NCBI GenBank assembly: GCA_030017835.1
Contig: JASEGU010000004.1
Location: forward strand, 6,445 to 70,444
Source: Actinomycetota bacterium
GTDB lineage: Bacteria > Actinomycetota > Aquicultoria > UBA3085 > Oleimmundimicrobiaceae
Length of the DNA: 64,000 nucleotides
Direction: 5' to 3'
Both the position numbers and the translations under genes were made by a program. Below the pieces are notes generated by a model. That model saw nothing but the letters and a program-made list of their open reading frames with translations, was not told the origin of the DNA and ran no database searches. This document shows, in pieces, positions 12,079-64,000 of this stretch; positions within the stretch are counted from its first letter, which is position 1, and each line of letters starts with the position of its first letter.

Positions 12079-13014
12079 AGCAAGTTCGACTATCCTTGAA
12101 ACCAGATCTCCCATGTCCATGCCGGCCGCCTTGGCCGCATCGGGAAAGAGGCTTAAAGGGGTCATGCCCGGACTCGTGTTTATCTCCAGAACGTACGGCG
12201 TGCCGTCCTTTGAGACGATGAAGTCGACCCTGGAAAACCCCCGGCAAAACAGCATCTTGTGGACTCTGGTGGCGAGTTTTTGCGCCGCTTCGTTCGCCGC
12301 CCCAGGAATTCTGGCCGGAATCACATGATGACTCATTCCGGCGGTATACTTCGATTCATAGTCATAGATTTCACCCTCATAGGTGATCTCTAGGGTGGGA
12401 AGGGCAACAAGATCGCGGTTTCCAAGAACGCCGACGGTAATCTCCGTCCCCTCTATATGCTCCTCCACCAATACCTCTTCGTCATAGCGGAAGGCCTCCT
12501 TAAGGGCCGGACCAAGATCGGCCTCCTCCTTGACGATGCTCATCCCGATGGTCGACCCTTCGCAGGCTGGCTTGACGACTAGGGGTAGGTCCAGCTTAGA
12601 GATAATCTCCTTAAAAGCGTCTTTGGCCTCAAAAATAAAATCCGACCGCGTAAGGGGAATGAACTCGGCGGTCGGTACGCCCTCAAATTTGAGCAGTTTT
12701 TTGGTGACGATCTTGTTGAGACCAAGGGCGCTCGCCAGGATCTTGGAGCCGGTGTAGGGTATGCCGAGGATCTCGAGAAGACCCTGGATCGCTCCGTCCT
12801 CCCCCAGGCGGCCATGGAGGGCTATGAAGGCCACATCAGGCCGGGCCTCCTTTAGGCGCTCCGAGATATCTATATCCAGATCTATCTTGATTGCCTGGTA
12901 GCCCCGGCCAGCCAGGGCCTTGTAGGCCTCTTCGCCCGAGATGAGGGATATCTCCCTCTCTTTGGAGCTGCCGCCGCAGATTATCGCCACTCTAAGTCCG
13001 TTCATGTCCTCCAC
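12061..13014 (-). CDS. ddl: D-alanine--D-alanine ligase (paralog 2)
   Basis: LRVAIICGGSSKEREISLISG…EINTSPGMT is an ATP-grasp Ddl. It is a second copy, divergent from the one at 2721. Confidence 0.85.
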   Translation of the reverse strand: MEDMNGLRVAIICGGSSKEREISLISGEEAYKALAGRGYQAIKIDLDIDISERLKEARPDVAFIALHGRLGEDGAIQGLLEILGIPYTGSKILASALGLNKIVTKKLLKFEGVPTAEFIPLTRSDFIFEAKDAFKEIISKLDLPLVVKPACEGSTIGMSIVKEEADLGPALKEAFRYDEEVLVEEHIEGTEITVGVLGNRDLVALPTLEITYEGEIYDYESKYTAGMSHHVIPARIPGAANEAAQKLATRVHKMLFCRGFSRVDFIVSKDGTPYVLEINTSPGMTPLSLFPDAAKAAGMDMGDLVSRIVELALEEPK

Positions 13015-17294: not shown

Positions 17295-18035
17295 TCACCC
17301 TTTATCGGCCCCGCCTAGGGGCCTCTTCTTTGGAATCCCAGCCCTTCTGGGGTATTGCTTGGGCGTGGGAACCAGTTTTTTTATTATCACGATTGTTCTT
17401 TTGGCTTCAACGAAAGGAACGTCTATCTCTCTTGCGGAGACCATGGCGCCCCCAAGCTCGTTTGCTCCCCTCTCTGCCGCGTCGATCTCGCTCAAGCTCA
17501 AGTTTGCTTTCTGGGCCAAGAGCGAACCGCCGATCTTAAGGATGGGTAAGGCATATTCCGCCAGAACAGAGAGGGGCGCAACCGCTCTTGCTAGAGCCAG
17601 GTCGAACTGCTCTCTGTTGTCCCTATTTATACCATAATCCTCGGCTCGGCAACAGACCGCCTGGATCCCATCAAGGCCCATTCTCTCTATCAAGCCCTGT
17701 AAAAAATCAACCTTCTTCTTGATGGAGTCCAAAAGAATCGTGTTTAAGTGGGGAAAGGCTATCTTTAGGGGCAGGCCCGGAAGGCCTGCCCCGCTTCCGA
17801 TATCTATCACCCTCTCTGTGCAAGAGAAGTCGTGGACGAGCTTAAGGCTCAAGGAGTCAAGGAAGTGCTTGCTGGCGATCTCCTCCTCTTCGGTTATGGC
17901 GGTAAGGGCGGCCCTCTTGTTCCCTGCTACGATCTCGTCCAAAAAGATCTCAAAAAGCTTCATCTTTTCCTCATCAAGCTCGATCTTTAGGGCGCCAGCC
18001 CCCTTGACGAGAAGATCTCGGCTCTTCGCTCTCAT
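17295..18035 (-). CDS. rsmG: 16S rRNA (guanine527-N7)-methyltransferase RsmG/GidB
   Basis: SAM motif DIGSGAGLPGLPLKIAFP, and a position between mnmG and parA. Confidence 0.85.
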   Translation of the reverse strand: MRAKSRDLLVKGAGALKIELDEEKMKLFEIFLDEIVAGNKRAALTAITEEEEIASKHFLDSLSLKLVHDFSCTERVIDIGSGAGLPGLPLKIAFPHLNTILLDSIKKKVDFLQGLIERMGLDGIQAVCCRAEDYGINRDNREQFDLALARAVAPLSVLAEYALPILKIGGSLLAQKANLSLSEIDAAERGANELGGAMVSAREIDVPFVEAKRTIVIIKKLVPTPKQYPRRAGIPKKRPLGGADKG

Positions 18036-19924: not shown

Positions 19925-20941
19925 CTAGCCCCTCTTCCTCTCCACCAGCTCCATCCTCTCTTTGGAGATGAGGCCAAGCTCGTGTCCTATCTTCGATAGC
20001 CTAAGGTCTGCGTTGTCTCCTCGCAAGATGAGCCGATGTTCGGCCCTTGAGGTATGCATGCGATAGGGCTCGGCATGCTCCTTGGTCACCAGATCGTCTA
20101 CGAGAACTCCCATGTAGGCCTGGGAGCGCTCCAGGACCAAGGGGGGCTTCCCTTTGACCTTTAGGGCGGCATTTATTCCGGCCAGAAGACCTAGGGCAGC
20201 CGCCTCTTCATATCCGGTCGTGCCGACTACCTGGCCGGCCATAAAAAGGCCGTCTACCAGCTTGGTCTCCAGATTCGGCTTGAGCTGGCTCGCGATGACG
20301 TAGTCGTATGCCCTGCTTGTTGATGTTGAGATTTTGTCTTTAGGGGGCGCCCCTTGCGACCTTGCGGGGCAAAGCCGAAAACCAAATTCTGTCAGGTCTT
20401 CTTTAAGATTTTTTTTGCGTCTGGACATGGTAAGAAAGGTGAAGCCGAGAGAGGCTTTTGGGGCTTTATGGCTTGGAGGGAGCCCCCCCGTCGCAAGGAG
20501 GACGGTCTTGGCGCCAATGTTTCCCCCGAACATGGTTTTGACTCCAGCGGCTCTTCCCTCCTTAACGATCAGCCCATCGACCAGATCCTGCCAAAAGGAG
20601 ATATTGGAAACCTCTTCTAGCGCCGTCTTTGTGTCGACTAAATGCTCTCGTTTCAAGGAGCGAGCCTCCCTGGCAACCTCATCTTGGCCGTCCCCGCCTT
20701 TAAAAGGAAAGGATCCGCTGACAAGCTCGATCTCTCGAAGCAAGGCCCCCCTTGCGGCCTCGCTAAAAGAGGGAGGATCTTCTCGGCGGATATTGTTGTC
20801 TAGCGAGAAAGAGACCATCAAAACCCTCATGCCCATGCGGGCTGCTGCCCAAGCTGCGCGGGCCCCACACGGGCTTGCCCCAACCACTATCAAATCATAT
20901 CTTTCTATCTTTTGCTCCTTTGATTCAACGCTATTTGCCAA
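19925..20941 (-). CDS. chimeric/degenerate MnmG-like FAD protein (possible pseudogene)
   Basis: The N-terminal ~210 aa are a highly diverged GidA-like FAD domain ([23 protein letters not shown]…[10 protein letters not shown]). The C-terminal 128 aa are identical to MnmG residues encoded by the 379-bp repeat. The ORF stop abuts the mnmG start. Confidence 0.5.
19931..20309. repeat. 379-bp direct repeat copy 2 (forms the 3' part of the chimeric ORF)
   Basis: Same as 18527..18905. Flanks diverge immediately outside the repeat. Confidence 0.85.
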
Positions 20942-28355: not shown

Positions 28356-29468
28356 TTGCATCTTTTTAGAGCAGAGCTCCTCAGCTTTAGAGGTCACAAA
28401 GAGGCTTCATTCGAGCCCATCCCTGGCATAAATGTGATAATCGGTGATAATGGCTGCGGCAAAAGCAACCCGCTAGAGGGAATCTTCGTCCTTATGAGAG
28501 GGAGGTCCTTTGGGACGAGCCAAGACGATGCTTTGATTCAACTCGGAGAGAGGGCGTCGGTAATTAGGGGGAGGTTTAAGGGAGAGAAGAGAGACTCTAA
28601 AATCGAAATGGGCATAAATGCTGACGCCGGAAAAGAGATTAGACTGAACGGCTTAAGGCTGGAGAAATTAAAAGATCTTAAGAGTTCTTTTGGAATAGTC
28701 ACCCTCTCTCCTGAGGATCTTAAGCTCGTCAAAGGTGGCCCCGAAGAGAAGAGGGCGCTCATGGATGAGGCTGGGGGGCCCTTGGCCCAAAATATGACCA
28801 TGCGAGGATGAGCCCTTTTAAGGTTTTAAAGCAACGAAACAACCTCTTAAAACAGATCAAATTTGGGAGAGCAGGCCCGCTCAAGCCCTGAGATATGGAA
28901 CGAGAGACCGATCATAACCGGAAAGAGGTTGATGGATGAGAGAAGAGAGACGGTTCAGCCTTTGAGCGAAGTCTGTCAAGATGTCTTCAATGAGATTTAC
29001 GGCCAGAGGCGCAGCCTGAGCCTAATGTGTTCGAACGAAATCTTTAAAAAAGACTCTCCGTCGAGGAGCCTCTCAAAGACCTCTTGGAAAAAGGGGGGGG
29101 CCGATGAGATTGAAAGGGGAACAAGCCTCATCGGCCCCCATAGAGACGACCCAACGATCCTTCTTGGGGGAAAAGAGGGGCCCAGGCCATATGTCTCCCA
29201 GGGCGAACAGAGGGCCATCAGCTTGGCCCTGAGGCTGGCCCACTATGAGCTCTTGTGTAGAGATGAACACGGGATGAACCTGTTTCTAATGGACGACGCC
29301 ATGTCGGAGATGGACGAGAAGAGAAGAGACAACCTCTTAAATTTCATCTCCGGGCTCAAACAGACCACAATCACCAGCACAAATCTCTACTACTTCAAGG
29401 ACGAGCATCTTAAAATGACGAACCTGATTGAAATGGGAGAAGGCGAGAGGAAGAGCAAGGCTTGTTGA
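28356..29468 (+). pseudogene. recF: recF disrupted by two compensating frameshifts (N-terminus and C-terminus in frame 0, middle ~100 nt in another frame)
   Basis: N-terminal Walker A GDNGCGKSN in frame 0. The middle segment …LGPKYDHARMSPFKVLKQRNNLLKQ… is in another frame. The C-terminal signature LFLMDDAMSEMD is back in frame 0. Frame 0 has three in-frame stops over 28809-28850. Shift sites are a G6 run at 28773-28778 and about 28855-28870. Confidence 0.7.
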
Positions 29469-31861: not shown

Positions 31862-34327
31862 ATGTCATCACGAGCGCAGCTTTTTGGAAACAAAACAGAA
31901 CCGGTCTACATCGAAGAGGAGATGAAGCGCTCATACATCGATTACGCCATGAGCGTGATCGCCGGGCGTGCCCTGCCCGATGTGAGAGACGGCCTTAAGC
32001 CGGTCCACCGCCGCATCCTCTACGGCATGTACGATCTTGGCATGGTTCCGGGCAAGCCCTATATGAAGTGCGCCCGCATCGTAGGAGAGGTTTTGGGAAA
32101 GTATCACCCCCACGGCGACAGCGCCGTCTATGACGCTCTGGTTAGGATGGCCCAAGACTTCTCCTTGAGATATCAGCTCATCGATGGCCACGGAAACTTC
32201 GGCTCGGTCGACGGCGACAGCCCGGCCGCCATGCGCTATACCGAGGCTCGCCTCTCCAAGCCGGCCATGGAAATGCTGAAAGACATCAACAAAGAGACGG
32301 TCGATTTCGCCCCCAACTTCGATGAGACCCTGAGCGAACCGACGGTTCTGCCCTCGAGGCTTCCCAACCTCCTTATCAACGGCTCCTCGGGGATAGCCGT
32401 CGGCATGGCGACCAACATTCCGCCTCACAACATGGCCGAGGTCATCGATGCCGTCGTCATGCTGATCGATAAACCAGAGGCCGGCATAGAGGATCTGATG
32501 ACTCAGATTAAGGGACCAGACTTTCCTACCGGGGGACTCATCGTCGGCACGGCCGGCACAAAAGAGGCCTATCGGACCGGGCGCGGCAACGTGATTATGA
32601 AATCCAAAACCCACATCGAAGAGACGAAATCGGGAAAGCACAGGATCATCGTGACCGAGATCCCGTTTCAGGTCAACAAGGCGCGTCTGACCGAGAAGAT
32701 TGCCGAGCTCGCCAGGGAGAAAAAGATAACCGAGATAAGCGACCTGCGCGACGAGTCCGACAGGAGCGGCATGCGTCTGGTCATCGAGCTGAAGAGGGAG
32801 GCCGTTCCCAAGGTCGCCTTAAACAAGCTATTCAAATATACCCAACTCAAAACGACCTTCAATATCATAACGCTGGCCCTGGTCGACACGGCTCCCAAGG
32901 TCCTCAACTTGCTCGAGGCCCTGAAGTACTACCTCGACCACCAGAGAGAGATCATCGTTAGAAGGACGAGGTTTGATCTGGCCAAGGCTGAAGCCAGAGC
33001 CCACATTTTGGAAGGGCTTTTGGTTGCCCTGAACAATTTGGACGAAATGATAAAGCTTATCAAGTCGTCAAAGACGGTCGATATCGCCCGCTCAAGCATC
33101 ATGGAGCGCTTCTCTTTGAGCGAGACTCAGGCCCAGGCCATTTTGGATATGCGCCTACAGAAGCTGACCGGCCTTGAGCGCGAGAAGATAGAGACCGAAC
33201 ACAAAGAACTCCTTGAGGCGATCGCCGAGCTCAAAGCCATCTTGGCCGACGAGAAGAGAGTCTACGCCATCATCAAGAGGGAAATCCTTGAGATCAAGAC
33301 GAACTATCTCGACGAGAGGCGCACCAAGATAGTTCCGGCCGAGGATGACTTGGAGGAGGAGGACCTCATTGCCGAAGAGCAGATGATCGTCTCGATAACC
33401 AATTCGGGCTACGTCAAGCGCTTGCCCGTCGAGACCTACCGCCAGCAGCAACGGGGCGGCCGCGGGGTCATCGGCATGAATCTCAAGGACGGGGACGTGG
33501 TCGAGCACATGTTCGTCTCCTCAACCCACGATTACGTCCTCTTCTTCTCCAACGAGGGCAAGGTCTACCGGGTCAAGGTTCACGAGCTCCCCTTGGGCAG
33601 CCGCACATCCAAGGGGCAGGCCATCGTCAACATCCTTCCCTTTGGGCCGGGCGAAAAGATAGCGGCCGTCATCGCGGCCAAGGGTTTTGAGCAGAGCAAA
33701 TATATCATAATGGCGACCAAGCTCGGTCTGGTCAAAAAGACCGAGCTCAAAGAGTACGACACCGCAAGGCGTGGCGGGATAATTGGTTTGAACCTGAAAG
33801 AAAATGACGAGTTAATAGGGGTCAAGCTGGTAGATAAGGATGACAGAATAATCCTCGTCTCCGAGCTGGGTCAATCGATTTGTTTCGACGAGAGCGACGT
33901 TCGTCCGATGGGCCGGGCCGCCTCGGGGGTCAAGGGGATCACCCTAAATCTGGCCGACGTGGTCCTTGCGATGGACGTCGTAAGAAACCTCGGCGAGCTC
34001 TTCGTCGTCACCAATAACGGTTATGGCAAGCGGACACCGATCACCAAATACCCGGCCCAGGCTCGGGGCGGAAAGGGCGTTCGCACGATCAAAAAGTTTG
34101 AGAGCGGGGAAAGGCTGGCCGGGGCCAAGGTGGTAAGCGATGAGCACGAGATCATGCTCATCTCGGCCGAAGGCTTGGTGATCAGGACGGCGGCCAAAGG
34201 GATAAGCCGGATGGGCCGGAGCACCCGCGGGGTTAGGGTCATCAACCTTAAAGAGAACGATGTGGTGAGCACGGTCGCCAAAGTGGCCAGCGCCAGGGCC
34301 TCAGAGGAAAACGGGGATGGAGTCTGA
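31862..34327 (+). CDS. gyrA: DNA gyrase subunit A
   Basis: Active-site Tyr region, QRDR-like [14 protein letters not shown], and C-terminal beta-pinwheel repeats. Confidence 0.95.
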
Positions 34328-34760
34328 AAAAAAGGAGAGCCGCCCCAGGCCCTTTGAGGTTATAGAACATACGGCTGATGTCGGGATAATCGGCTACGGC
34401 GGGGACCTAAAAGAGGTTTTTGAAAACACCGCCATCGGCATGTTCAGTCTAATTACAGAACTTAACGCCGTTTCAAAAGATCTTGAGATTCAAGTGGAGG
34501 TCGAAGCGGAAGATGTTGAGGGACTGATGGTGGCCTGGCTTAACGAATTGATCTATCTCTTCGAGACCAAGGGGGTTCTATTTAAAGAGTTCGACATCCT
34601 GGAGCTCAGCGAAGAGGGGCTAAGGGCCGTGGCCCGCGGCGAGGAGTTAAATCCTATCAAACATGAGATCAAAACGGAGATAAAAGCAGCCACCTATCAT
34701 ATGCTCAAAGTGGAGAGCGAAAAAGAACGCTTAAAGAGCCGAGTCATATTTGACGTTTAG
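34317..34760 (+). CDS. archease (RtcB activator/chaperone)
   Basis: [16 protein letters not shown] … ATYHMLKV … VIFDV is the archease signature and C-terminus. Confidence 0.85.
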
Positions 34761-34850
34761 CCCAGTAAAAAAAGGGAGGCGGTTGCAATCAAGGGCATCG
34801 AAAAGATCGGCGAGTATTGCTACAGAATCCCCAAAGAGACCCGAAGCGAC

Positions 34851-36230
34851 ATGTTGGTCGACGGGATAATATTCTCCGACGAAAGCCTTTTTGCAACGGA
34901 CGAATCGTCTAAGGCGCTGGAGCAGGTGGCTAACGTCGCCACCCTTCCCGGAATAGTCAAAGCTTCCTTTGCTATGCCCGATATCCATTGGGGATATGGC
35001 TTTCCCATTGGCGGGGTGGCCGCTGTGCGAGAAGAGGACGGCTTCATTTCGCCAGGCGGGGTTGGCTTCGACATCAGCTGCGGGGTCAGGCTCCTGAAGA
35101 CGTCCATGATTGCAAGCGAGATAGAGCCCGATCTAAAATCCCTTATGCACGAGCTCTCCCGAAACATCCCCAAAGGGCTTGGGCGCAAAGGAAAGATCTC
35201 GCTTAACCAGAGCGAGCTCGAAGAGGTGCTGGACAAGGGGATCGAATGGGCTCGAAAGCGGGGATTTGCCAGTAAAGACGAGACGAATCGCATCGAGGAG
35301 AGCGGGCGGCTGGCCGGTGCAGATCCTGGCGCGGTCAGCAAGAGGGCCTTCGATCGAGGCGCTAGTCAGTTAGGCACGCTCGGCTCGGGCAACCACTTTT
35401 TAGAGGTGCAGGAGGTGACCGAGATTTTTGATTCGGCCAGCGCCAAGGCTTTTGGAATATTTAAAGGTCAGCTTATGGTCATGATCCACTCCGGCTCAAG
35501 GGGCCTTGGTCATCAGGTCTGCACCGACTACGTCAAGGTGATGGACGGGGTGGTCAAAAGAATGGGCCTTACCCTGCCAGACCGCCAGCTCGCCTCCGCC
35601 CCCATCGCTTCACCTGAGGGACGCAATTACTATGGAGCAATGGCGGCTGCGGCCAATTATGCCATGGTCAACAGGGGGCTTCTGGCCTTCTGGGCCAAAG
35701 AGTCCTTCGAGAGCACCTTCTCGGCGACCGCCAAAGAGATGGGCATCGAGCTTCTCTACGACGTCTCTCACAATTTGGCCAAATTCGAAGAGCATGTGGT
35801 GGACGGCAAGCAGATGAAGCTATGTGTTCACCGAAAGGGGGCCACCAGGGCCTTTGGGCCCAGCCTCTTGCCCAAAGATTCTCCCTATAAAGAGATCGGT
35901 CAGCCGGTCATGATCCCTGGGGACATGGGGCGAGCCTCCTACGTATTGCTTGGGACGGAGGAGTCAGAAGAGAGGGCCTTCAGTTCGACCTGTCACGGGG
36001 CGGGGCGCGTCATGAGCCGCACCCAGGCCAAGAAGAGCATCGGGCTGGACCAGTTGAGAAAGGACCTCGAAGAGAGGGGAGTCATCGTCTTGGCCGGGCA
36101 GAAATCAACCCTGGCCGAAGAGGCTCCGGGCGCCTATAAAGACGTCGATAGGGTGACTCTGGTTTGTGAAGGTGCCGGCCTCTCTAGGCGAGTGGCCAAG
36201 CTGCGGCCACTTGGCGTGATAAAGGGCTAG
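34851..36230 (+). CDS. rtcB: RNA-splicing ligase RtcB (3'-phosphate/5'-OH RNA ligase)
   Basis: …LPGIVKASFAMPDIHWGYGFPIGGVAAV… plus the conserved His/Cys metal ligands. The first canonical start (ATG 34851) removes about 21 RtcB-homologous residues that are encoded in-frame from 34788. See findings. Confidence 0.8.
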   Translation: MLVDGIIFSDESLFATDESSKALEQVANVATLPGIVKASFAMPDIHWGYGFPIGGVAAVREEDGFISPGGVGFDISCGVRLLKTSMIASEIEPDLKSLMHELSRNIPKGLGRKGKISLNQSELEEVLDKGIEWARKRGFASKDETNRIEESGRLAGADPGAVSKRAFDRGASQLGTLGSGNHFLEVQEVTEIFDSASAKAFGIFKGQLMVMIHSGSRGLGHQVCTDYVKVMDGVVKRMGLTLPDRQLASAPIASPEGRNYYGAMAAAANYAMVNRGLLAFWAKESFESTFSATAKEMGIELLYDVSHNLAKFEEHVVDGKQMKLCVHRKGATRAFGPSLLPKDSPYKEIGQPVMIPGDMGRASYVLLGTEESEERAFSSTCHGAGRVMSRTQAKKSIGLDQLRKDLEERGVIVLAGQKSTLAEEAPGAYKDVDRVTLVCEGAGLSRRVAKLRPLGVIKG

Positions 36231-36332: not shown

Positions 36333-36409
<77 letters not shown>

Positions 36410-36510
36410 TTTGAGAGAAGAGGCTATAACGCAAAAGGCGCGCAGAGCATATTTGGCGCCTTTGTTAATGGAGTCTCTTTGGGCCTTCTCTTAAGGCCGA
36501 TTGGCGAGTT

Positions 36511-38588
<2,078 letters not shown>

Positions 38589-45181: not shown

Positions 45182-45268
45182 GCCGGGGTGGTGAAATTGG
45201 CAAACACGCTAGGTTCAGGGTCTAGTGCTCGAAAGGGCTTGCGGGTTCGAGTCCCGCCTCCGGCACCA
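45182..45268 (+). tRNA. tRNA-Leu (anticodon CAG), long variable arm
   Basis: Acceptor GCCGGGG/CTCCGGC, loop TTCAGGG, 15-nt variable arm, T-loop TTCGAGT, CCA. An extended -10 TGATATAAT lies at 45130-45138. Confidence 0.75.
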
Positions 45269-45368
45269 TCATCGATCAGCATCAGCAGTCAAAACAATCG
45301 GAAGGAAACCGCCTCCCATCATGTCCGAGCAACAAGGTAGATATCCTCCCAAGCGCAAAGTCAGATAC

Positions 45369-46394
45369 ATGAAGAAGCCCAGGAAGAAGAGGGCTTCGCC
45401 CCTTGGCCCCTTGCTTCTCTTCGTCATCGTGGCCGCCATCATCTACTTTGTCGCAAAAGGCGGCGGCGAAGACGTAAGCGCCTACGACTCCTATGTCTTG
45501 GAGATAAACAAGCTTGCCAGGGCCTCCAATGAGATTTCCAAAGATTTCTTCCTCCTCCGGGCCGAGGCCTTCACGATCACAAGGGGAGAATTTAGGGCGA
45601 GGATGGATAAGAATTATAACGATAGCTTTGAGATATTCGGAAGGGCGGCCGCGATCGAGCCGCCGCCCAGCCTGGAGGGGGCTCACGCCTATGCCAGGCT
45701 GGCCTTCGATTTAAGGGCGGACGGCATGGAGCTCTATGGTCCGGCCATGGCCAGCGTCCTTGAGGAGGATAGATCGGAGGCCGTCTCAAACAAGCTCTCG
45801 ACTGCTCTCAGATACCTGATCTTAAGCGACGAGGCCTATTTCCGCTTCGAAGAGGATGCCAAGGGCCTTCTTGCGACCAAGGGGGCGACCTCCTCCCTCA
45901 TAGGCTCAGAATTCGTCGAAGATGATGATATTTCGGACAGCTCCAAAGTCAGCGCCTATATCAAGGGGCCCCAGGCCCCTGAGGTCGAGGTCGAGACGGC
46001 GGCGGGGTCGGAAAGCAAAGTCCTTCGAGGGGTCGCCGTCACCGGCCTTGTGGTGAAGCCAGCCCGGATCGCCTATGACGAGGCGACCAAGGTGGCCACC
46101 CTGCCCGATGTCAGCGAGGTCTCGGTCGAGGTGACGGTCGAAAATCAGGGCGACCTGACCGAAAGCGACCTGACCGTCAGGGTTATCGTTGAGACGGCGG
46201 ATGGGACCGATGTGGGGGCAAGGAGCGCAAAGATAGTAAGCATCGCCTCCGGAGAGAAAAAGGTCGTCTCAATAAAGGGGATCAAGGTCGCAAAGGGCGG
46301 AGCGATAAATCTGCTCAAGGCGACGGCCGTCCCGGTCGAAGGGGAAAAGATCACCACCAACAATACTAGGGAGCTTAAGTTCAGGGTGGGCTAG
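45369..46394 (+). CDS. hypothetical membrane-anchored protein with C-terminal CARDB/DUF11-like beta-sandwich domain
   Basis: Start moved to the in-frame ATG at 45369, after the tRNA. Basic N-terminus plus TM (LGPLLLFVIVAAIIYFV). The C-terminus VSVEVTVENQGDLTESDLTVRVIVETADGTD resembles CARDB. Confidence 0.45.
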   Translation: MKKPRKKRASPLGPLLLFVIVAAIIYFVAKGGGEDVSAYDSYVLEINKLARASNEISKDFFLLRAEAFTITRGEFRARMDKNYNDSFEIFGRAAAIEPPPSLEGAHAYARLAFDLRADGMELYGPAMASVLEEDRSEAVSNKLSTALRYLILSDEAYFRFEEDAKGLLATKGATSSLIGSEFVEDDDISDSSKVSAYIKGPQAPEVEVETAAGSESKVLRGVAVTGLVVKPARIAYDEATKVATLPDVSEVSVEVTVENQGDLTESDLTVRVIVETADGTDVGARSAKIVSIASGEKKVVSIKGIKVAKGGAINLLKATAVPVEGEKITTNNTRELKFRVG

Positions 46395-47578
46395 GGCCCG
46401 GTCAAATCGGCCCTTGCCTGGCTCCGGGCCTCTTCGTAGACGGCCCTGATGGGAACCCCGTCCTTTAGGGCGGCCTCTCTGCAGTCCTCATATTCCGGCG
46501 AGGCGCTTATGGCCCCGCCCTCAAAATGGCCGATCTTGACCCCAATCTCGCCGTAAATGGTTTTGACCTTAACCGTCTTGCGGGCGGCCTTCTTCCTGGA
46601 AAGCGGGCTAATCCTGATTCCCAGACTCCCTGTCTCCAAAAAGAAGGCTCTTATCAGGCTCTCTTCCTTCTCCTTGTGGACGATGGCCGAGAGGGCGACG
46701 GCCGGGCGCATCTTTTTCATGTAAATCGGAGTCAACCAGGCGTCCAGGGCGCCCACCGTAAAGAGGCGCTCGATTATGTGGCCGAATAGCTTTGGCTCCA
46801 GATCGTCGATGTTGGTCTCGATGAGGATCACCTCATCCGCTCGGTCGGTCTCTCTCCCATCGCCCTCAGTCTCTCCGATTATCAGCCTAAAGATGTTTGG
46901 CGACTCTAAATCATAAGAGCCGGCTCCATAGCCGACAAAGAGCACTCTTGACGGGGGAATTGGCCCAAACTCGCTTACGACGGTCTTTATTAGGGCCGCC
47001 CCGGTTGGGGTAGTAAGCTCGAGGGGGATATCGCCGCCATAGATGGGAGCCCCCTTTAGAAGCTCCAGGGTGGCAGGGGCGGGCAAGGGGAGCTCGCCGT
47101 GGTCGCATCTGACCGTTCCGCTTCCCGTTTTGATGGGAGAGGAGAAGGCTTTTTCGATGGCGAAGTGGCTAAGGCCGACGGCGCCTCCGACTATGTCGAC
47201 GATGGAGTCGACTGCTCCGAGCTCGTGGAAGTGAACCGCCTCCACCGCTTGGCCGTGGAGGCGGCCTTCCACCTCGGCCAGGGCCAAAAAGATTTGGACG
47301 GCGAGCTCTTTGACGCGCACCTTAAGGGAGCTCTCTTCGATCAGGCGCTTAATATCTCTCCAGGGGCGAGCCTTGCCGTCCTCTTTTGAGACGATCTTAA
47401 TCGAAGTTGCGGCAAGGCCCGCCCTCGTCTCTCTGCTTGCGCGGATCTCGCAGCCCTGAAGGCCCAAGGAGGCGATGGCCTCTTCAACGGCATCTAGCGG
47501 CAGGCCGGCGTCTATCAGGGCTCCCAAAAACATGTCTCCGCTTATTCCCGATGAGCAGTCGAAATAGGCTATCCGCAT
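46391..47578 (-). CDS. larC: nickel-pincer cofactor biosynthesis protein LarC (CTP-dependent nickel insertase, DUF111)
   Basis: The N-terminus MRIAYFDCSSGISGDMFLGALIDAG is the LarC/DUF111 signature. Confidence 0.8.
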   Translation of the reverse strand: MRIAYFDCSSGISGDMFLGALIDAGLPLDAVEEAIASLGLQGCEIRASRETRAGLAATSIKIVSKEDGKARPWRDIKRLIEESSLKVRVKELAVQIFLALAEVEGRLHGQAVEAVHFHELGAVDSIVDIVGGAVGLSHFAIEKAFSSPIKTGSGTVRCDHGELPLPAPATLELLKGAPIYGGDIPLELTTPTGAALIKTVVSEFGPIPPSRVLFVGYGAGSYDLESPNIFRLIIGETEGDGRETDRADEVILIETNIDDLEPKLFGHIIERLFTVGALDAWLTPIYMKKMRPAVALSAIVHKEKEESLIRAFFLETGSLGIRISPLSRKKAARKTVKVKTIYGEIGVKIGHFEGGAISASPEYEDCREAALKDGVPIRAVYEEARSQARADLTGP

Positions 47579-47583
47579 CCCCT

Positions 47584-48336
47584 TTAATCCTCCCCCTTCA
47601 AGGCGTTTATTCTGGCCGCGATTGTGCCGGCCCCAAATCCGTTGTCGATATTTACAACGGCTATTCCAGGAGCGCAGGAGTTCATCATGGTCAGAAGGGC
47701 GGCCAGCCCTCCGAAGCTTGCGCCATAGCCGATGCTGGTTGGAACGGCGATTATGGGGCAGGAGACGAGTCCCCCCACCACGCTCGGAAGCGCTCCATCC
47801 ATGCCGGCGATGGCGATTATCACGTTGGCCGCCTCAAGCCGACTTCGGAAGGATAAGAGGCGGTGGACGCCGGCCACCCCGACATCGTATATCCTTTCGA
47901 CCTTGGCTCCGAGCATATCGGCCGCTATGGCCGCCTCCTCGGCGACCGGGATGTCCGAGGTCCCACCCGTAAGGACGAGGACCTCTCCTCGCTTGGGCAG
48001 GGTCCCTTGGCCCACGGTTATGATCCTTGCTCGCGGGTGGTATCTAGCCTTGGGCACTAAGCCTAAAACCAGGTCGAAAGCGGCCTGGTTGGCCCTGGTG
48101 GCCATGAAGCTCGTCCCTGTTTTGGCCAGTGACTCGGCTATCTCGCCGATCTCGGCCAAGCCTTTACCGGGGCAGAATATCGTCTCGGGCGCAGAGGTCC
48201 TCAAGGGCCGGTGATGATCCACCTTGGCAAAGCCGAGGTCTTCGAAGGGAAGGTCGCGGAGCGCCTCGAAGGCCTCGCCCGCTTCGATCTCACCTTCGGC
48301 GAGCCTTACCAGAAGCTCTTTTATCCTAGCCTCCAT
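47584..48336 (-). CDS. larB: nickel-pincer cofactor biosynthesis protein LarB (PurE-like NaAD carboxylase/hydrolase)
   Basis: PurE-like core (VLVLTGGTSDIPVAEEA…IIAIAGMDGALPSVVGG). Start chosen at the internal Met (MEARIKELL) preceded by AAGGAGG. The longer ORF to 48408 would overlap larE by 83 nt. Confidence 0.75.
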   Translation of the reverse strand: MEARIKELLVRLAEGEIEAGEAFEALRDLPFEDLGFAKVDHHRPLRTSAPETIFCPGKGLAEIGEIAESLAKTGTSFMATRANQAAFDLVLGLVPKARYHPRARIITVGQGTLPKRGEVLVLTGGTSDIPVAEEAAIAADMLGAKVERIYDVGVAGVHRLLSFRSRLEAANVIIAIAGMDGALPSVVGGLVSCPIIAVPTSIGYGASFGGLAALLTMMNSCAPGIAVVNIDNGFGAGTIAARINALKGED

Positions 48337-49153
48337 GGGCCTCCTTAAGCTGAGGCAGAGCGAGCGCTTCGCCCCCCTTTTCGCAGATGAATAGACGATC
48401 GAATCCAAAAGAGGAAAAGTCGGCGAGCAGATTCGCCTGAATCATCCTCTCGGCAAGCTTGGTAAGGCCGCCAAAATCCAGCTCTATCTTTGCGGACTTC
48501 GGGCCGAGCGATCTGACCCTTACATGGGAGATGCCCAGACCCTTGACGGCCGCCTCGGCTCGGTCGATTCGGCCGAGCAGCTCTGAGGTTATCCTCTGAC
48601 CATCCCCAATCCTTGTGGCAAGGCAGCTCTGAGGCGGCTTGTTCCAGAACGGGGAGCCCATCGTTTTAAGGATCATCCTAACCTCGCTCTTGCCCATGTT
48701 CAGTTCGGCCAAGGGGGAGAGGACGCCAAATTCTTTCAGGGCCAGAAGGCCGGGGCGGTCGTCCAAGAGATCGTCTGAGTTCGTGCCGTCAATGAGGGTC
48801 GAGGCGCCCACCTTGGATGCTGTCTCCATCATCTTAGATAGGATCAGCCGCTTGCAGAAGTAACATCTCTTTTTGCCGCTTTCCAAGAAATCTTCATCAC
48901 CCAAGGGGTCTATCTCGACTATCAGGGGCTTAACGCCGAGGGTGGCAGCCATCTTCATTGCCGCCTCAAGCTCGCCACTTGGAAGCAGGGGGCTGGCGGC
49001 GGTGACCCCGATTGCTCCAAATCCCAGCGCTTCTTTGGCGGCGGCAAGGACGAGGAGGCTGTCGGCTCCGCCGGAGAACGCCACCAAGACAGATTCAAAG
49101 GAGGCAATCCGTTTGACGAGGGAGTCGTAACAACTTGGCCTAGCCATATTCAT
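48326..49153 (-). CDS. larE: nickel-pincer cofactor biosynthesis protein LarE (ATP-dependent sulfur transferase, PP-loop)
   Basis: PP-loop SVLVAFSGGADSLLV, and a C-terminal Cys in a …C… context typical of LarE. Confidence 0.8.
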   Translation of the reverse strand: MNMARPSCYDSLVKRIASFESVLVAFSGGADSLLVLAAAKEALGFGAIGVTAASPLLPSGELEAAMKMAATLGVKPLIVEIDPLGDEDFLESGKKRCYFCKRLILSKMMETASKVGASTLIDGTNSDDLLDDRPGLLALKEFGVLSPLAELNMGKSEVRMILKTMGSPFWNKPPQSCLATRIGDGQRITSELLGRIDRAEAAVKGLGISHVRVRSLGPKSAKIELDFGGLTKLAERMIQANLLADFSSFGFDRLFICEKGGEALALPQLKEAHGG

Positions 49154-49261
49154 GCTCCTTAAGGCAGAGTTAAAATAAGTATATCAGGCTTAAAGCGAAT
49201 GCAAAGCGGCCAGCTTTTGTGTATAATTTTACAATCTTTATCTTCGCTTAGGAGGAGCAAG

Positions 49262-49778
49262 TTGACTTTTTTTGAAGGGAACCCCGCGACGACCATCGGC
49301 CTTGTGGCCCTTATTGCCCTCTGGCTTCTCATCTTGACCATTAGGTTCATATCCCTAAAAAGGAGCTTAAAGAGGGTGAACAAGGCAGCAAAGAAGGGCG
49401 ATGTGGCTGCCCTGATCGGTCAGCTCGCCGATGAAGTCATCTCGTTTTCCGGCCGGCTAAATGATCTAGAGGGGGCCCAAGCAAGGACCGCAACCCAGCT
49501 TAAGGGGGCGATTCAACGGGTCGGCCTCGTCAGGTTCGATGCTTTCGGTGACATCGGAGGGGGCTTAAGTTTTGCTCTGGCCATCTTGAACGAAAATGGC
49601 GACGGCCTGGTCATAAGCACAATAAACGGTCGCACCGACAGCCGCTCATATGCTAAGGTGGTAAAGGGCGGCGAACAGACCGCTCACTCCCTCTCGAGCG
49701 AGGAGCAGGGGGCGATTGCAAAAGCCATGGGTTCGAGGGGAGCTCATCGCGGCGAGGTGGCCGACAGGGAATGGCAAA

Positions 49779-49792
<14 letters not shown>
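49262..49792 (+). CDS. DUF4446-family protein
   Basis: TTG start 6 nt after GGAGGAGCAAG. N-terminal TM helix then …VRFDAFGDIGGGLSFALAILNENGDGLVISTINGRTDSRSYAKVV…. Confidence 0.45.
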
Positions 49793-55697: not shown

Positions 55698-56105
55698 TTG
55701 GTAAGACCGGTCAAGTGCAGAAGGGTCTCCTTCGCTCCGGATCACCGTTATTTCAAGCCGGCCGGCGTCCCCTTAAGCGAGCTTGCCGAAACTGTACTCA
55801 GCCTAGATGAGCTCGAGGCGGTCCGCTTGGCCGACCTGGAAGGGCTTTATCAAGAAGAGGCTGCAAAGAGGATGAACGTCTCGAGACAGACCTTTGGCAA
55901 CATCCTCTCTTCGGCCAGGAGAAAGATCGCCGAATCTTTGGTTGAGGGCAAGGCATTAAAGATCGAAGGGGGCCAGGTTCACCTGGCTGCAAAGAGAATC
56001 TTTACCTGTCATGACTGCGGCCACAGATGGGGCCCATGCTTTGGAGAGCGGCGGCCGCTCGGATGCGAGGTCTGTCAAGGCAAAAATATATACCGCTCAA
56101 AATGA
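55698..56105 (+). CDS. DUF134-family putative DNA-binding protein with C-terminal Cys4 zinc ribbon
   Basis: MVRPVKCRRVSFAPDHRYFKPAGVP…LDELEAVRLADLEGLYQEEAAKRMNVSRQTF is the DUF134/sigma-70 region-4-like HTH. The C-terminus carries CHDCGH…CEVC. Confidence 0.65.
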   Translation: MVRPVKCRRVSFAPDHRYFKPAGVPLSELAETVLSLDELEAVRLADLEGLYQEEAAKRMNVSRQTFGNILSSARRKIAESLVEGKALKIEGGQVHLAAKRIFTCHDCGHRWGPCFGERRPLGCEVCQGKNIYRSK

Positions 56106-56165
56106 CCGGCCTAAGCCTCTTGTCAAAACCGGTAAGGTCGGACAAAAACCTGAAAGGAGAGAGAG

Positions 56166-56540
56166 ATGAGAATATGTATCCCAACCAAAAACGATGAGGG
56201 CCTAGCCTCGATAGTCTATGGTCACTTCGGGAGCGCCCCCTACTTTTTGGTCTACGATACGGAGACTTCCAAGATGGAGGCGATAAACAACTCCGACCAA
56301 GGCCACGAGCACGGCAGGTGCAAGCCTTTGGCCTCTTTTGTTAACCATCCGATAGATGCCGTGGTAACCGGAGGAATCGGTCTTAGGGCTATGGAACGTT
56401 TAAGCCAAGGCGGCGTCAAGGTCTATCGCATGGTCAGTGAGCCCACCGTTTTAGAGGTGATTGAGAAGTATCGCCAGGGCTTATTGGAAGAGATAGCCCT
56501 AGATGATGCCTGCTCCCACGATCACGACTGCAATCATTAG
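56166..56540 (+). CDS. NifX/NafY/NifB-C-terminal-like dinitrogenase cofactor-binding domain protein
   Basis: MRICIPTKNDEGLASIVYGHFGSAPYFLVYDTET…AVVTGGIGLRAMERLSQGGVKVY matches the PF02579 pattern. Confidence 0.7.
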   Translation: MRICIPTKNDEGLASIVYGHFGSAPYFLVYDTETSKMEAINNSDQGHEHGRCKPLASFVNHPIDAVVTGGIGLRAMERLSQGGVKVYRMVSEPTVLEVIEKYRQGLLEEIALDDACSHDHDCNH

Positions 56541-60511: not shown

Positions 60512-60922
60512 TTGATAGCCGAAGAGAAGATAGAAAAGCTGAAAGAAGAGGGTCGCGTCCCAACCATCCAACGCCTGGCTGTGCTCGAGTTCATGGAGGG
60601 CAACTTAGGTCATCCCACCGTGGAAGAGGTATATAGGGGTCTTAAGGACAGATATCCCTCCCTCTCACAGGCCACCGTCTATTCTACCCTGGAACTCCTT
60701 CGAGATCTCGGTCTCTTGCGTGAGCTGACCATTCTGCGCTCCAAGGTCTGCTACGATTCGATAATCGAAGCTCACCATCATTTTTCTTGCAAGGCTTGCG
60801 GGCGCGTCTTTGACGTCGCTGTCGATTGCGCTATTCCCAAAAAGGATCTGATTCAAGGCAACAAGGTCGATGAATTCCAGGCTTATATCTACGGCACTTG
60901 CTCAAATTGTTTAGAAGGGTGA
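60512..60922 (+). CDS. fur: Fur-family metalloregulator (Fur/PerR/Zur/Nur-type)
   Basis: wHTH N-terminus, HHHF metal site and two CxxC pairs (CKAC…CSNC). Confidence 0.8.
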   Translation: MIAEEKIEKLKEEGRVPTIQRLAVLEFMEGNLGHPTVEEVYRGLKDRYPSLSQATVYSTLELLRDLGLLRELTILRSKVCYDSIIEAHHHFSCKACGRVFDVAVDCAIPKKDLIQGNKVDEFQAYIYGTCSNCLEG

Positions 60923-60978
60923 TTTTGAGAAGAAGATAAAGTTTTACAAAAATCGGTCAATCAACAACGGAGGAGTCA

Positions 60979-61629
60979 ATGAAAGAGATCTGCATCGAAC
61001 AAGCTAAGAGAAAAAGCATTCAAAGCCATGCGTGGCTACTTCTTCCCCTGATAGTCTTTGGCGGGCTTAAGTGGCCATATTTGGGCTTTGGGGTCCTTGC
61101 CATGATGGGCTTTTTCCTCGTCATGGCGGCGATCAAAGGGAGGCACTGGTGCGGCTGGTTCTGTCCGCGCGGCTCATTTCTCGAGCGCATACTGGAGAGG
61201 GTGAGCTTAAATGGGAGAGTGCCCGCGCTGCTCAAAACGGCCCCCTTTCGCTGGAGCGTATTTGCTCTCATGATGAGCTTTATGTCGTTTCGTCTGATTG
61301 GGACGGGCGGAAACCCGGTTAAGATCGGCTCGGTCTTCATAACCATGTGTATCATCACCAGCATATTGGCGATAGGGCTAGGCCTCATCTTCAAGCCGAG
61401 GTCCTGGTGCAGCTTCTGTCCGATGGGAACCCTTCAAGGGGTCTTGGGCGCAAGCAAGAATCTGGTCTCGATAGGTGAGGATTGTATCGACTGCGGCGCG
61501 TGCGGGCGGGTTTGTCCGATAGGTACGGTCGCCATGGATTTCAAGGATAGCGGCCGCGTCGCCAGCATCGATTGCTTGCGCTGCAGAGAATGTTTGGCCA
61601 AGTGCCCGGTCGGCGCCCTTGATTGTTAA
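60979..61629 (+). CDS. NapH/MauN-like membrane-bound 4Fe-4S ferredoxin
   Basis: TM helices carry the CGWFCPRG and CSFCPMG motifs. The C-terminus has two ferredoxin motifs, CIDCGACGRVCP and CLRCRECLAKCP. Confidence 0.7.
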   Translation: MKEICIEQAKRKSIQSHAWLLLPLIVFGGLKWPYLGFGVLAMMGFFLVMAAIKGRHWCGWFCPRGSFLERILERVSLNGRVPALLKTAPFRWSVFALMMSFMSFRLIGTGGNPVKIGSVFITMCIITSILAIGLGLIFKPRSWCSFCPMGTLQGVLGASKNLVSIGEDCIDCGACGRVCPIGTVAMDFKDSGRVASIDCLRCRECLAKCPVGALDC

Positions 61630-61650
61630 TCTAAAGAACGGGGAGCACGC

Positions 61651-62469
61651 ATGAAGCTGGTGATATATGGCAAGGGCGGAATCGGCAAGTCCACGACGAC
61701 CTCGAATTTGGCCGTCGCCTTTGCCAGGCGCAAAAAGAGCGTTCTGCAGATAGGCTGCGATCCCAAACACGACTCCACCTTTCCGATAGCTCACAGTCTG
61801 ATACCGACCGCAACCGAGGTCCTAGCCGAGAAAGATTTCAACTACGATGAGGTCGACAAGGACGACATCATCTTCACCGGTTATGAAGGGATAGCCTGCG
61901 TCGAGGCGGGCGGTCCGGCGGCCGGGGTCGGTTGCGCGGGATATGTGGTCGGAGAGACGATTGGGCTCCTTAGCGATCTTGGCGCTCTGACCGCCTACGA
62001 TATAATCCTCTTTGATGTCCTTGGCGACGTCGTCTGCGGCGGCTTCTCGGTGCCGCTTCAACATGCAGATTACGCGGTAATCGTTGCGACTAACGATTTC
62101 GATAGCCTCTTTGCGGCCAACCGGATCGCCGCCGCCGTGGCTCAGAAGGGCAAGTCCTATCCGGTAAAATTTGCCGGCATGATCGCAAACCGCTGCAGCA
62201 AGAAAGATCTCATCGATGCTCTTTCGGCTAGGCTCGACTCCAAGACGATAGGCCTTATCGAAGAGAACTCCTCAATCCGTACCTCTCGTCTCGGCGGCAA
62301 GACCATCTTCGAAGCGGCCGAGAGCGACCCTGCCCTTGTGGCGCTTACCATGCCCTACATAGAGATAGCCGATTATCTGCTCTCAAACCCTGCCGCCCAA
62401 GAGACCCTGCCCCTCTCAGACCGCGAGGTATTTTCCCTCCTTACCGAGATTGAGTCCGCGGCCAAATGA
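61651..62469 (+). CDS. bchL: BchL/ChlL-like ATP-dependent reductase (NifH-family; DPOR L-subunit-like)
   Basis: [16 protein letters not shown]…[12 protein letters not shown]…[20 protein letters not shown]…[12 protein letters not shown]…LFAANRIAA…DREVFSLL. Both 4Fe-4S Cys ligands are present, and there is near-motif-identity to ChlL/BchL. Confidence 0.8.
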
Positions 62470-63734
62470 GTGAGGAGGCAAGGCTTGCCGTCTGCTACTA
62501 TTCATGGTGTCCGCTCGCCGCTATCGGCTGGTTTTCCAGAAGATTTGAAAATATTCACTTCATAAGCATCGGCATGCGCGAATGCGCTCACTTCATCCAG
62601 ATGGGGCTTTCTCGCCGAGGAGAACACGGGCTTTGCTTCTCTTTGGCCCTGCTCGAGGAGGAGGAGATCGCCACGGGTGAAATATATGAGCCGCTTTTAG
62701 AGATTGCCAAGGAGGCGGTTGGGGGTGGAGCCGAAATCATCGTCCTTATGGGCTCCTGCGCTCTTGAGATTATGAAGCTCGACCTAAAATCTCTGGTCAA
62801 GAGGCTGGGCGAGGAGCTTGGCGCAAAGGTTGTGGCCGCTCAATCTAGCGGCTTCTTCAAGGGCGAGGGGGAGGGGGAAGATATCATCATCTCGGCCCTT
62901 TTGGAGTTGATTAGTCCAAGCAGCGACGTCCAAGGTAGCCGAGGGGTTGTCCTCCTCGGTTCGGCCTCCAAGGAGACGGCGGCCGTTTTAAGGGCCGAGA
63001 TGGAGGCGCTCGGCATCTCCTTTGGCGGCTTCTTTCCCGGCAATAGCCCCTCTGATATGGCCAGGATCTCTAAAAGTTCTCTGGTTGCCCCGCTCTACCC
63101 CTATCTCTCCAAGAGCCTTCGAACGGTCAAAAATATTTTTGGAGCAACCATTTTGAGCTCGCTCTTTCCTCTGGGAGCCGACGGATCTGAGGATTTCTAC
63201 GGAGCGATCCTTCGCAAATTATCGCTGGACCCGGCCCCGCTTGCCGAAATGGCCAAGGAGGCTAGGGAGGAGGCGGGCGAGCGGGCAGCCCACCTGATGG
63301 AGAAGACGATCATGATAATTGGAAGCGGTCTTATAGAGCTGCCGCTCGCCCGCCTCTTTGCAGATCTTGGCCTAGGCGTTTTCGAGGTTAGCACGCCGAG
63401 CTTAAATGGCAGCCTTGCGGCGGAGCTTAATCGGTTGAAAGAGCTTGGGGTTGAGGTGATAGAGGGGGCCGATCTTTACGATCAGGTCAAAAGGGCCAAA
63501 GAGGCGGGGGTAGATCTGGTCTTTGCCCATCTCTCCTTGGCCAACTTCTTGAAGGAGAGCGGCTTTCTGACCGTGCCGAGCGCCGCCTATTTGCGCCTGG
63601 AGATGCTTGGTCTCGCTAACTCCAAAAATATCGTCGAGCCCGACCTCTACGGGAAACTGACCGGTCTTGCTCCCTTCTATCCCAAAGAACTCGAGAAGGA
63701 TCAGGTCATCACCATAAAGGGGCTTGGCCGATGA
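62466..63734 (+). CDS. bchN: BchN/ChlN-like subunit (nitrogenase component-1 family; DPOR N-like)
   Basis: [10 protein letters not shown]…[15 protein letters not shown]…[17 protein letters not shown] has three conserved Cys matching BchN Cys26/51/112. Translationally coupled to bchL (ATGA). Confidence 0.7.
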
Positions 63735-64000
63735 AGAGCGCAAAGTGGCTCTATGAGGGGCCGGCTATTTTTGGGGCGGCCATGATGACGGCAAGCCCTC
63801 GCGGGGCAAGCCTCCTCATTTTGGGAATGCTCGGCGACGGCTATCCTCTTTCCGAAATCGGTTTGGGCTTTGAAGTGGGCCGCCTTCCCGTCTCGACGAT
63901 CGCCCTCGGGCGGCGCGAGCTCTCGCTGGGGGCCCAAGAGAAGTTTTTGGCCGCCCTAAAGCGTCAGGACGAAGTGGTTTCCAACGGGGTTATAATGGTT
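63731..64000 (+). CDS. bchB: BchB/ChlB-like subunit (DPOR B-like), 5' partial; continues past the window end
   Basis: [21 protein letters not shown]…LILGMLGDGYP… matches the BchB N-terminus (MKLxxWxYEGPxHxGAMRVA…GPQGDTY), including the Asp36 equivalent. Confidence 0.65.
   Translation, partial: MKSAKWLYEGPAIFGAAMMTASPRGASLLILGMLGDGYPLSEIGLGFEVGRLPVSTIALGRRELSLGAQEKFLAALKRQDEVVSNGVIMV

Follow-up and report, generated by a model that had tools for sequence, protein, structure and literature searches.

A larE-larB-larC operon for nickel-pincer nucleotide synthesis in the replication-origin region of an uncultured actinobacterium, with no LarA-family gene found in the surrounding 64 kb

The lar operon of Lactiplantibacillus plantarum is arranged as larA-larB-larC1/C2-larD-larE and is accompanied by larR and larQOM. 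[quoted passage not shown] Here we describe a larE-larB-larC operon in a stretch of 64,000 nucleotides (the window) from contig JASEGU010000004.1 of the Actinomycetota assembly GCA_030017835.1. The window encodes orthologous LarB, LarC and LarE and would share the pathway, but its gene order is E-B-C, unlike that of L. plantarum, and it has no larA, larD, larR or larQOM. L. plantarum LarC is made from two open reading frames (ORFs) joined by a programmed frameshift, whereas LarC in the window is one fused ORF. L. plantarum LarE has the sacrificial Cys176, whereas LarE in the window has serine there and a CxxC...C triad.

For such operons, having no user enzyme next door is common. Of more than 1,000 genomes surveyed, about 9% had larA together with the biosynthetic genes and about 15% had larB, larC and larE without larA (PMC11796402). 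Clients of NPN outside the LarA family have been demonstrated: mining of LarC neighbourhoods without LarA within 20 ORFs yielded the NphT enzymes, which have the aldo-keto reductase (AKR) fold, and AKR homologues with extended pockets might also bind nickel-pincer adenine dinucleotide (NPAD) (PMC13524815). An NPAD-dependent ornithine cyclodeaminase is reported as well (Desguin 2025, as cited in PMC13524815). A preliminary description of this stretch had stated that orphan clusters serve LarA homologs, a view that these enzymes have made out of date. With LarC, LarB and LarE present and no LarA nearby, the window would pass the filter for larA-less larBCE clusters of Semersky et al. 2026 (PMC13524815). 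Their clusters were nominated by an adjoining AKR (PF00248) or NAD(P)-type oxidoreductase, whereas the neighbours here are housekeeping genes that include no such candidate, so guilt by association yields nothing at this locus.

We are confident that the locus is an NPN-cofactor biosynthesis operon whose client enzyme would be encoded outside the window. In an ORF listing of the 43-53 kb region, three consecutive minus-strand ORFs filled positions 46391-49153 exactly. Profile searches recovered the PurE-like LarB, LarC and LarE, all with scores far above curated cut-offs, and structure alignments agreed, confirming both the gene identities and the tight packing that the preliminary description had given. 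The operon itself is ordinary, a known kind of cluster that standard pipelines name easily.

LarC matched PF01969 over profile positions 1-375 of 375 (450.7 bits, E=5.8e-135), the LarC1 model TIGR00299 with 198.6 bits (cut-off 90) and the LarC2 model NF052512 with 137.1 bits (cut-off 50). No programmed ribosomal frameshift was found between LarC1 and LarC2; the gene is one uninterrupted 395-codon ORF. Such a frameshift characterises L. plantarum but not the LarC family at large, and lacking it leaves the assignment as LarC intact. The full-length LarC of Moorella thermoacetica (12bi; PMC13510736) is likewise a single-ORF LarC1-linker-LarC2 protein. Residues 1-390 of the window protein aligned with it at E=7.9e-98, ungapped over residues 1-240, and the residue numbering of that 2026 structural study therefore transfers directly. 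The match to L. plantarum LarC2 (6bwo) was weaker (E=2.8e-21). H108, H116, H118 and H160 are conserved at identical positions to M. thermoacetica LarC, as is the whole acidic pocket (D15, R71, E104, E119, D124, D128 and E187). Alanine variants of H108, H118, H160 and the acidic pocket of the M. thermoacetica enzyme were nearly inactive or markedly reduced in activity, while H53 and H226 were peripheral and moderately important (PMC13510736). The two proteins differ at the peripheral histidines H53, H226, H70 and H72, which are A, S, A and P, respectively, in the window protein. LarC1 contains only 5 histidines here; the M. thermoacetica domain has 8 and the L. plantarum domain 21.

LarB scored 277.1 bits against NF033503 (cut-off 175; E=9e-83), and its AIRC domain scored 61.1 bits against PF00731 (cut-off 30; E=1.1e-16). 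The ORF is open from 48408; the ATG used is at 48336 and the stop at 47584. Residues 5-246 aligned with L. plantarum LarB 7mj0 (E=1.5e-63), and alignment to 7mj0 and 8soq showed that Ser127, Asp128 and Cys221 are kept. Asp128 and Cys221 were invariant in all 55 LarB proteins of related loci. The active-site Cys221 is reported to form a transient cysteinyl-pyridine adduct (Rankin et al. 2021). By homology, we assign LarB as a putative NaAD carboxylase/hydrolase.

LarE scored 227.6 bits against TIGR00268 (cut-off 150; E=1.5e-67) and carries the PP-loop SGGADS at residues 27-32. Its Cys97, Cys100 and Cys177 align with the three cysteines of PDB entry 8cnz (residues 9-254, E=1.8e-18). This entry was deposited as 'NAD_synthase domain-containing protein' and is presumably an archaeal Fe-S LarE. 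Against L. plantarum LarE 5udq (E=1.6e-26), Ser176 occupies the column of the sacrificial Cys176, with a cysteine one residue later. The three-cysteine triad was present in 48/48 LarE proteins neighbouring related LarC genes. Work on Thermotoga maritima LarE showed that its CxxC...C triad holds a [4Fe-4S] cluster on which catalytic, non-sacrificial sulfur transfer depends, and that its third cysteine comes one position after the column of L. plantarum Cys176 (PMC9283937). The window LarE resembles T. maritima LarE and 8cnz in its SGGxDS PP-loop, its CxxC and its offset third cysteine; identity to them is low, and for the window protein both the binding of a cluster and the need for a cysteine desulfurase are predictions. 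Its motif points to the common [4Fe-4S]-dependent T. maritima type and not to the sacrificial L. plantarum type. Because serine occupies the Cys176 column and the triad is present, the NCBIfam wording 'sacrificial sulfur transferase' is probably inappropriate as a product name here, and flagging this probable error of automatic naming is of modest value.

Direct reading of the larE-larB junction (GCTTAAGGAGGCCCATGGAGGCTAG) confirmed that larB starts, with an AAGGAGG site, inside the 3' end of larE, as had been described. The larB ATG (48336..48334) precedes the larE stop TAG (48328..48326), giving an overlap of 11 nt. The larC ATG lies 5 nt past the larB stop and is preceded by GGGGGAGGA. Upstream of larE, an AAGGAG (49160..49155) stands 1 nt from the first ATG (49153) and 7 nt from the second (49147). 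The second ATG is probably the true start, given the 7-nt spacing and the 273 aa called for larE of the 90% relative described below. A promoter-like site upstream of larE, a 9/12 consensus match with a TG extension, sits in an AT-rich spacer of about 110 bp common to the divergent DUF4446 gene; the region holds 4 such sites against 1.5 expected, and further consensus matches fall within larB and larC. An Rfam scan returned only tRNAs, with no riboswitch or leader found near the lar operon.

Table 1. Coordinates of the lar operon, its boundaries and other features of the window, and of SLOG-cluster4 genes at related loci (positions in the respective contig)
Feature	Coordinates	Strand	Details
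larC, CTP-dependent nickel insertase (cyclometallase)	46391..47578	-	395 aa, LarC1 + LarC2 fused
larB, NaAD C5-carboxylase/phosphoanhydride hydrolase	47584..48336	-	250 aa, PurE-like C-terminal domain
larE, PP-loop ATP-dependent sulfur insertase	48326..49153	-	275 aa, CxxC...C subtype
larB ribosome-binding site AAGGAGG	48346..48340	-	in larE 3' end; 3-nt spacer to larB ATG; direct reading
Promoter-like site upstream of larE	49178..49205	-	TTTGCA - 16 nt - TG-extended TATACT; consensus scan
DUF4446 gene	49262..49792	+	divergent boundary, outside lar system; PF14584 E=1.5e-33; then pheA, serS
CARDB-like gene	45321..46394	+	membrane-anchored; convergent boundary, outside lar system; weak CARDB match E=2.5e-4
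yidC, KH/R3H protein, trmE, gidA, gidB, parA, parB		-	origin-region genes
dnaA, dnaN, recF, DciA, gyrB, gyrA, archease-RtcB	dnaA 25653	+	origin-region genes
Fur-family regulator	60512-60922	+	DPOR-like cluster
NapH-like polyferredoxin	60979-61629	+	DPOR-like cluster
L-protein	61651-62469	+	DPOR-like cluster
N-like subunit	62466-63734	+	DPOR-like cluster
Third ORF	start 63732	+	DPOR-like cluster; runs off window
SLOG gene, L085	12840-13307		larE-larC-SLOG-amine oxidase-LarA
SLOG gene, L089	11492-11950		DUF4446 / larE-larC-SLOG / LarA
SLOG gene, L090	2687-3145		larE-larB-larC-SLOG / LarA
SLOG gene, L091	6497-6958		partial contig; amine-oxidase gene between SLOG and LarA
SLOG gene, L092	3061-3519		LarA / SLOG-larC-larE / DUF4446-pheA-serS

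To look for client enzymes and nickel transport in the window, we ran Pfam over its plausible (non-antisense) ORFs with a length of 120 aa or more. We found no LarA (PF09861/PF21113), no AKR-type NphT (PF00248), no ornithine cyclodeaminase and no nickel transporter (LarQOM, CbiMNQO or NikABCDE) among these ORFs. Ten diverse LarA seeds, compared by tblastn with all six frames of the window, gave E=0.04 (27.7 bits) at best, and a degraded LarA copy was not found either. The earlier claim that no LarA-family gene lies in the window thus stands. The two flanking genes were considered as NPN clients and rejected. The CARDB-like protein is anchored in the membrane at its N-terminus and gives only a weak CARDB/FxLYD-type match, and DUF4446 remains beside pheA-serS at loci without larB and larE; neither is like a nucleotide-cofactor enzyme. 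The 64-kb window alone is insufficient for calling the cluster orphan at genome level. As client, a racemase or epimerase of the LarA family encoded elsewhere in the genome seems to us about as likely as a non-LarA enzyme (AKR-type NphT or another). The question of the client is real but generic, and the larEBC locus gives no special handle on it.

In the pathway that we propose, larE, larB and larC would probably be co-transcribed from the sigma-70-like promoter in the DUF4446 spacer, and their translation is probably coupled, first through the 11-nt overlap and then across the 5-nt gap. LarB would carboxylate C5 of NaAD and hydrolyse off AMP, giving P2CMN. LarE would adenylylate the two carboxylates and turn them into thiocarboxylates (P2CMN to P2TMN), most likely as a catalyst, with a [4Fe-4S] cluster on Cys97/Cys100/Cys177 that carries a non-core sulfide and with no sacrifice of cysteine. 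LarC would CMP-ylate P2TMN and insert nickel to form the C-Ni bond, and the finished cofactor would pass to a client encoded outside the window. We also considered that the operon might yield NPAD or another NPN derivative, and not the mononucleotide NPMN, for an ornithine cyclodeaminase-type or other NAD-fold enzyme. The reported NPAD-using cyclodeaminase and the possible NPAD binding by extended-pocket AKR homologues, both mentioned above, lend this idea some support, but LarB closely resembles the hydrolysing enzyme of L. plantarum over its full length and keeps Ser127, Asp128 and Cys221, and the window ORFs scanned include no ornithine cyclodeaminase gene. We regard such a variant product as highly improbable.

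Several observations weigh against the biosynthetic operon as we read it. LarB position 180 is Asp, while 49/55 relatives have Glu, although the change is conservative. The larE promoter is a consensus match with a predicted function. No intrinsic terminator was found after larC, whose stop overlaps the convergent gene, which leaves the transcript end undefined. A nickel transporter, a cysteine desulfurase and a client enzyme are all absent from the window, and for this reason we infer use of the cofactor solely from conservation of the genes.

The nearest LarC proteins were 90%, 66% and 60% identical to that of the window, followed by proteins of about 50% identity across many anaerobe phyla. 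The close relatives came from GCA_964637455.1, a metagenome-assembled genome (MAG), and from SRR23882321, SRR23875555 and SRR11582140. Three of them (loci L001, L003 and L004 below) showed the same serS-pheA-DUF4446 / larE-larB-larC / CARDB-like / pknA-like arrangement as the window, and the order serS-pheA-DUF4446 / larEBC / CARDB-like / pknA-fhaA was retained down to 47-48% LarC identity. A scan of species-representative genomes found no LarC relative above 49% identity; it supplied 80 LarC loci with flanks, of which all ORFs were clustered. LarC was adjoined by LarB in 55/85 loci and by LarE in 48/85. The DUF4446-pheA-serS neighbourhood was common to the Actinomycetota MAG loci L005, L007, L014, L019, L022 and L023, L005 being Ca. 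Subteraquimicrobium of the class Aquicultoria. SerS identity to the window was 78-90% for L004, L001 and L003, 67% for L005, 63% for L022 and 61-62% for L023, L007, L014 and L019. Housekeeping identities of this type therefore group the window with L004, L001 and L003, and the organism is an uncultured, deep-branching anaerobic actinobacterium near the class Ca. Aquicultoria.

In a search seeded with the LarA homologue of L023, LarA was encoded within about 10 kb of larC in only 2/84 related loci (L023 and L047). A larA gene that is not adjacent to larC is thus the norm and the commonest configuration. The preliminary description was right that larA is not adjacent; given these counts and the published survey, this is no oddity. 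Other genes flanking larC, read by eye from cluster sequences and not by profile search, were CbiM/CbiQ/ABC-ATPase trios in 5/84 loci, short-chain dehydrogenases in 9 loci, old yellow enzyme-type reductases in 4 and AOR in 5. From where they lie, we took the recurrent ORF clusters 3, 6, 10 and 24 for antisense shadows of larB or larC and rejected them as genes.

Rearranged versions of the locus were also seen. In L007 (9929-12557), L014 (2940-5455) and L019 (8708-11367), larC adjoins DUF4446 but has neither larB nor larE next to it. Behind larC come a nucleotidyltransferase of the DUF2204/AbiEii type, which is conserved, and a calcineurin-like metallophosphoesterase in convergent orientation. 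In L005 (6634-9893), a block of about 3.3 kb with an IS200-like (Y1_Tnp) transposase parts larE-larB from larC; this operon is split by a mobile-element insertion.

The LarA homologue of L023 adjoins larC and matched Lar_N (206.6 bits) and LarA_C. Its clade consists of proteins 57-100% identical from uncultured Actinomycetota, including Ca. Solincola and Geothermincolia. All six clade LarA genes whose surroundings were examined (L023, L085, L089, L090, L091 and L092; contexts of the last five from GCA_964515075.1, GCA_015711955.1, SRR5451355, ERR4998601 and SRR27730047) lie at most about 3 kb from larC. The Geothermincolia-type LarA most resembles Mar2, a malate racemase, and keeps the two catalytic histidines, the tethering lysine and the histidine that ligates nickel. 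The Geothermincolia-type lar locus (L090, L092, L089, L085 and L023) shares with the window the DUF4446-pheA-serS neighbourhood, an Fe-S-type LarE and a fused LarC. Inspection of these flanks, as the preliminary description had proposed, revealed the difference: immediately after larC, Geothermincolia-type loci add a SLOG-cluster4 gene and LarA, whereas the window lineage has the convergent CARDB-like gene there.

The SLOG-cluster4 gene (PF18306, LOG/'lysine decarboxylase'-like, about 152 aa) adjoined larC on the LarA-facing side in 5/5 Geothermincolia-type loci, and in L089, L090 and L092 it lay directly between larC and LarA. It was not found in the window. It could be an unrecognised NPN or LarA accessory, for example in nucleotide handling.

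The CARDB-like gene holds the position of SLOG and LarA in the window, L001, L003, L004, L005 and L022. Since all six clade LarA genes examined are near larC and a CARDB-like gene occupies the homologous position here, we suggest that the Geothermincolia-type LarA orthologue is absent from the window lineage and not merely relocated; other LarA paralogues may lie elsewhere. The lineage might go further and have no LarA-family gene at all, its NPN serving an NphT-type AKR, an ornithine cyclodeaminase-type enzyme or an undescribed family. This would be a sub-case of the client question and not a contradiction of the NPN operon. The contrast between the six clade LarA genes near larC and the six CARDB-like loci argues for it, as do the larger share of genomes with larBCE without larA (about 15%, against 9% with it) and the demonstrated non-LarA clients. 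On the other hand, LarA is not adjacent at 82/84 loci, so non-adjacency is uninformative on other paralogues, only 64 kb are visible, and AKR (PF00248) and ornithine cyclodeaminase genes were likewise not found in the window. We see the chances of a lineage with no LarA-family gene as evenly balanced. A narrower proposal, that the window lineage and its Aquicultoria-type relatives lost or never had the locus LarA and kept larEBC for a client of an unrecognised family (not LarA, AKR-NphT or ornithine cyclodeaminase), appears unlikely to us.

The loss of an adjacent LarA might also have left the lar genes decaying or non-functional. SLOG and LarA are present at the homologous locus of sister lineages and not in the window lineage, and the locus is plastic, as the solitary larC of L007, L014 and L019 and the IS200-like block between larB and larC of L005 illustrate. 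We calculated dN/dS by the Nei-Gojobori method. Against the 90% relative, the values were 0.29 for larE, 0.16 for larB and 0.26 for larC, and 8/9 comparisons, those with unsaturated dS (90% and 60-66% relatives, from the LarA-less lineage), fell at 0.14-0.30. None of the three ORFs is broken or truncated, their catalytic residues are conserved, and the translationally coupled larEBC architecture is kept in relatives from 90% down to 60%. Because dN/dS is low and the motifs are intact, larEBC is under purifying selection and is not a relic, and we find decay scarcely credible. The operon instead appears to be a canonical, functional NPN-biosynthesis unit, stably inherited at an origin-proximal locus.

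These deep-branching anaerobic Actinomycetota offer a natural comparison of modest value, in which the same locus occurs with or without SLOG and LarA and purifying selection on larEBC persists. Once genomes are complete, this contrast could help to trace alternative NPN clients by phylogenetic profiling, a question to which the AKR-type NphT enzymes (2026) are the first answers. If the lineage is truly without LarA, a comparison of gene content between sister lineages with and without LarA could point to the client.

The lar operon lies about 20 kb from dnaA, and Pfam/NCBIfam scans showed that the window spans the chromosomal origin region. It is preceded by a pknB(PASTA)-pbpA-rodA-PP2C-fhaB-fhaA-pknA-like block and then tRNA-Leu; a block of fhaA, fhaB, PP2C, rodA, pbpA and pkn genes is typical of Actinobacteria. 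At its 5' end, the longest CARDB-like ORF runs into the tRNA-Leu(CAG) gene (45182-45268), and the CARDB-like gene therefore probably starts at about 45321. Its stop and that of larC overlap convergently in the palindrome CTAG (46391-46394), which leaves no space between them for a terminator; this 4-nt overlap was also called in L001, L003 and L004. On the other side, the DUF4446 gene probably starts at TTG 49262, after an AGGAGG, and was called at 174-176 aa in relatives. It adjoins larC even at loci without larB and larE.

A nitrogenase-family cluster resembling dark-operative protochlorophyllide oxidoreductase (DPOR) was found at 60512-64000 on the plus strand of this apparently non-phototrophic actinobacterial genome, and in the relative L093 (2073-6469). 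The L-protein scored 381 bits against the BchL/ChlL NCBIfam equivalog model (cut-off 345), and 285 bits to Prochlorococcus ChlL compared with about 160 bits to any NifH. It is 100% identical to the GenBank protein MDI6799478.1. Otherwise, close homologues with an identity of 66% or more are few, and after them come true cyanobacterial and plastid ChlL at about 55%. The N-like subunit had BchN/ChlN as its best PDB matches, with a score below the cut-off. The third ORF may be BchB-like, judging by its N-terminus. In the 86% relative, the third subunit has a length of just 399 aa, and genes of the chlorophyll pathway are lacking in the vicinity. A link between this cluster, 12 kb away, and the lar operon, by analogy with CfbCD of nickel-tetrapyrrole synthesis, was rejected: the scores are those of BchL/BchN and not CfbC/D, tRNAs and unrelated genes lie between, and no lar genes occur within about 10 kb on the L093 contig. 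About 4 kb upstream of the DPOR-like cluster, within a tRNA gene cluster, a DUF134 gene (sigma-70 region-4-like helix-turn-helix) is followed by a small PF02579 'dinitrogenase iron-molybdenum cofactor' (NifX/NifB-C-like) protein (55698-56540, plus strand).

Further features of the window were recorded. The recF gene appears split into two ORFs (28356-29468, plus strand), a 151-aa N-terminal RecF/SMC_N part and a 201-aa Walker-B/C-terminal part separated by a gap of about 50 nt; a frameshift or stop, decay to a pseudogene or misassembly could account for this. A tRNA-Ile(GAT)/tRNA-Ala(TGC) pair (36333-36586, plus strand) stands alone, with no rRNA in the window; such pairs are usually located in the spacers of rRNA operons. 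The tRNA-Ala(TGC) overlaps the last 20 or so codons of the opposite-strand pknB(PASTA) ORF. For a 718-aa ORF (13359-15515, minus strand), neither Pfam nor NCBIfam gave a match at E<=0.01. The window has two paralogous D-Ala-D-Ala ligase genes, both full length, within 10 kb of each other (2676-3668, plus strand; 12061-13014, minus strand), and a second, shorter GIDA-family ORF (338 aa, 19925-20941) lies directly upstream of full-length gidA/mnmG (region 18032-20941, minus strand). Finally, the window encodes an archaeal-type bifunctional fructose-1,6-bisphosphate aldolase/phosphatase (7676-8779, minus strand; PF01950, 623 bits) and an archease-RtcB RNA-ligase pair (34317-36230, plus strand), both typical of deep-branching anaerobes.

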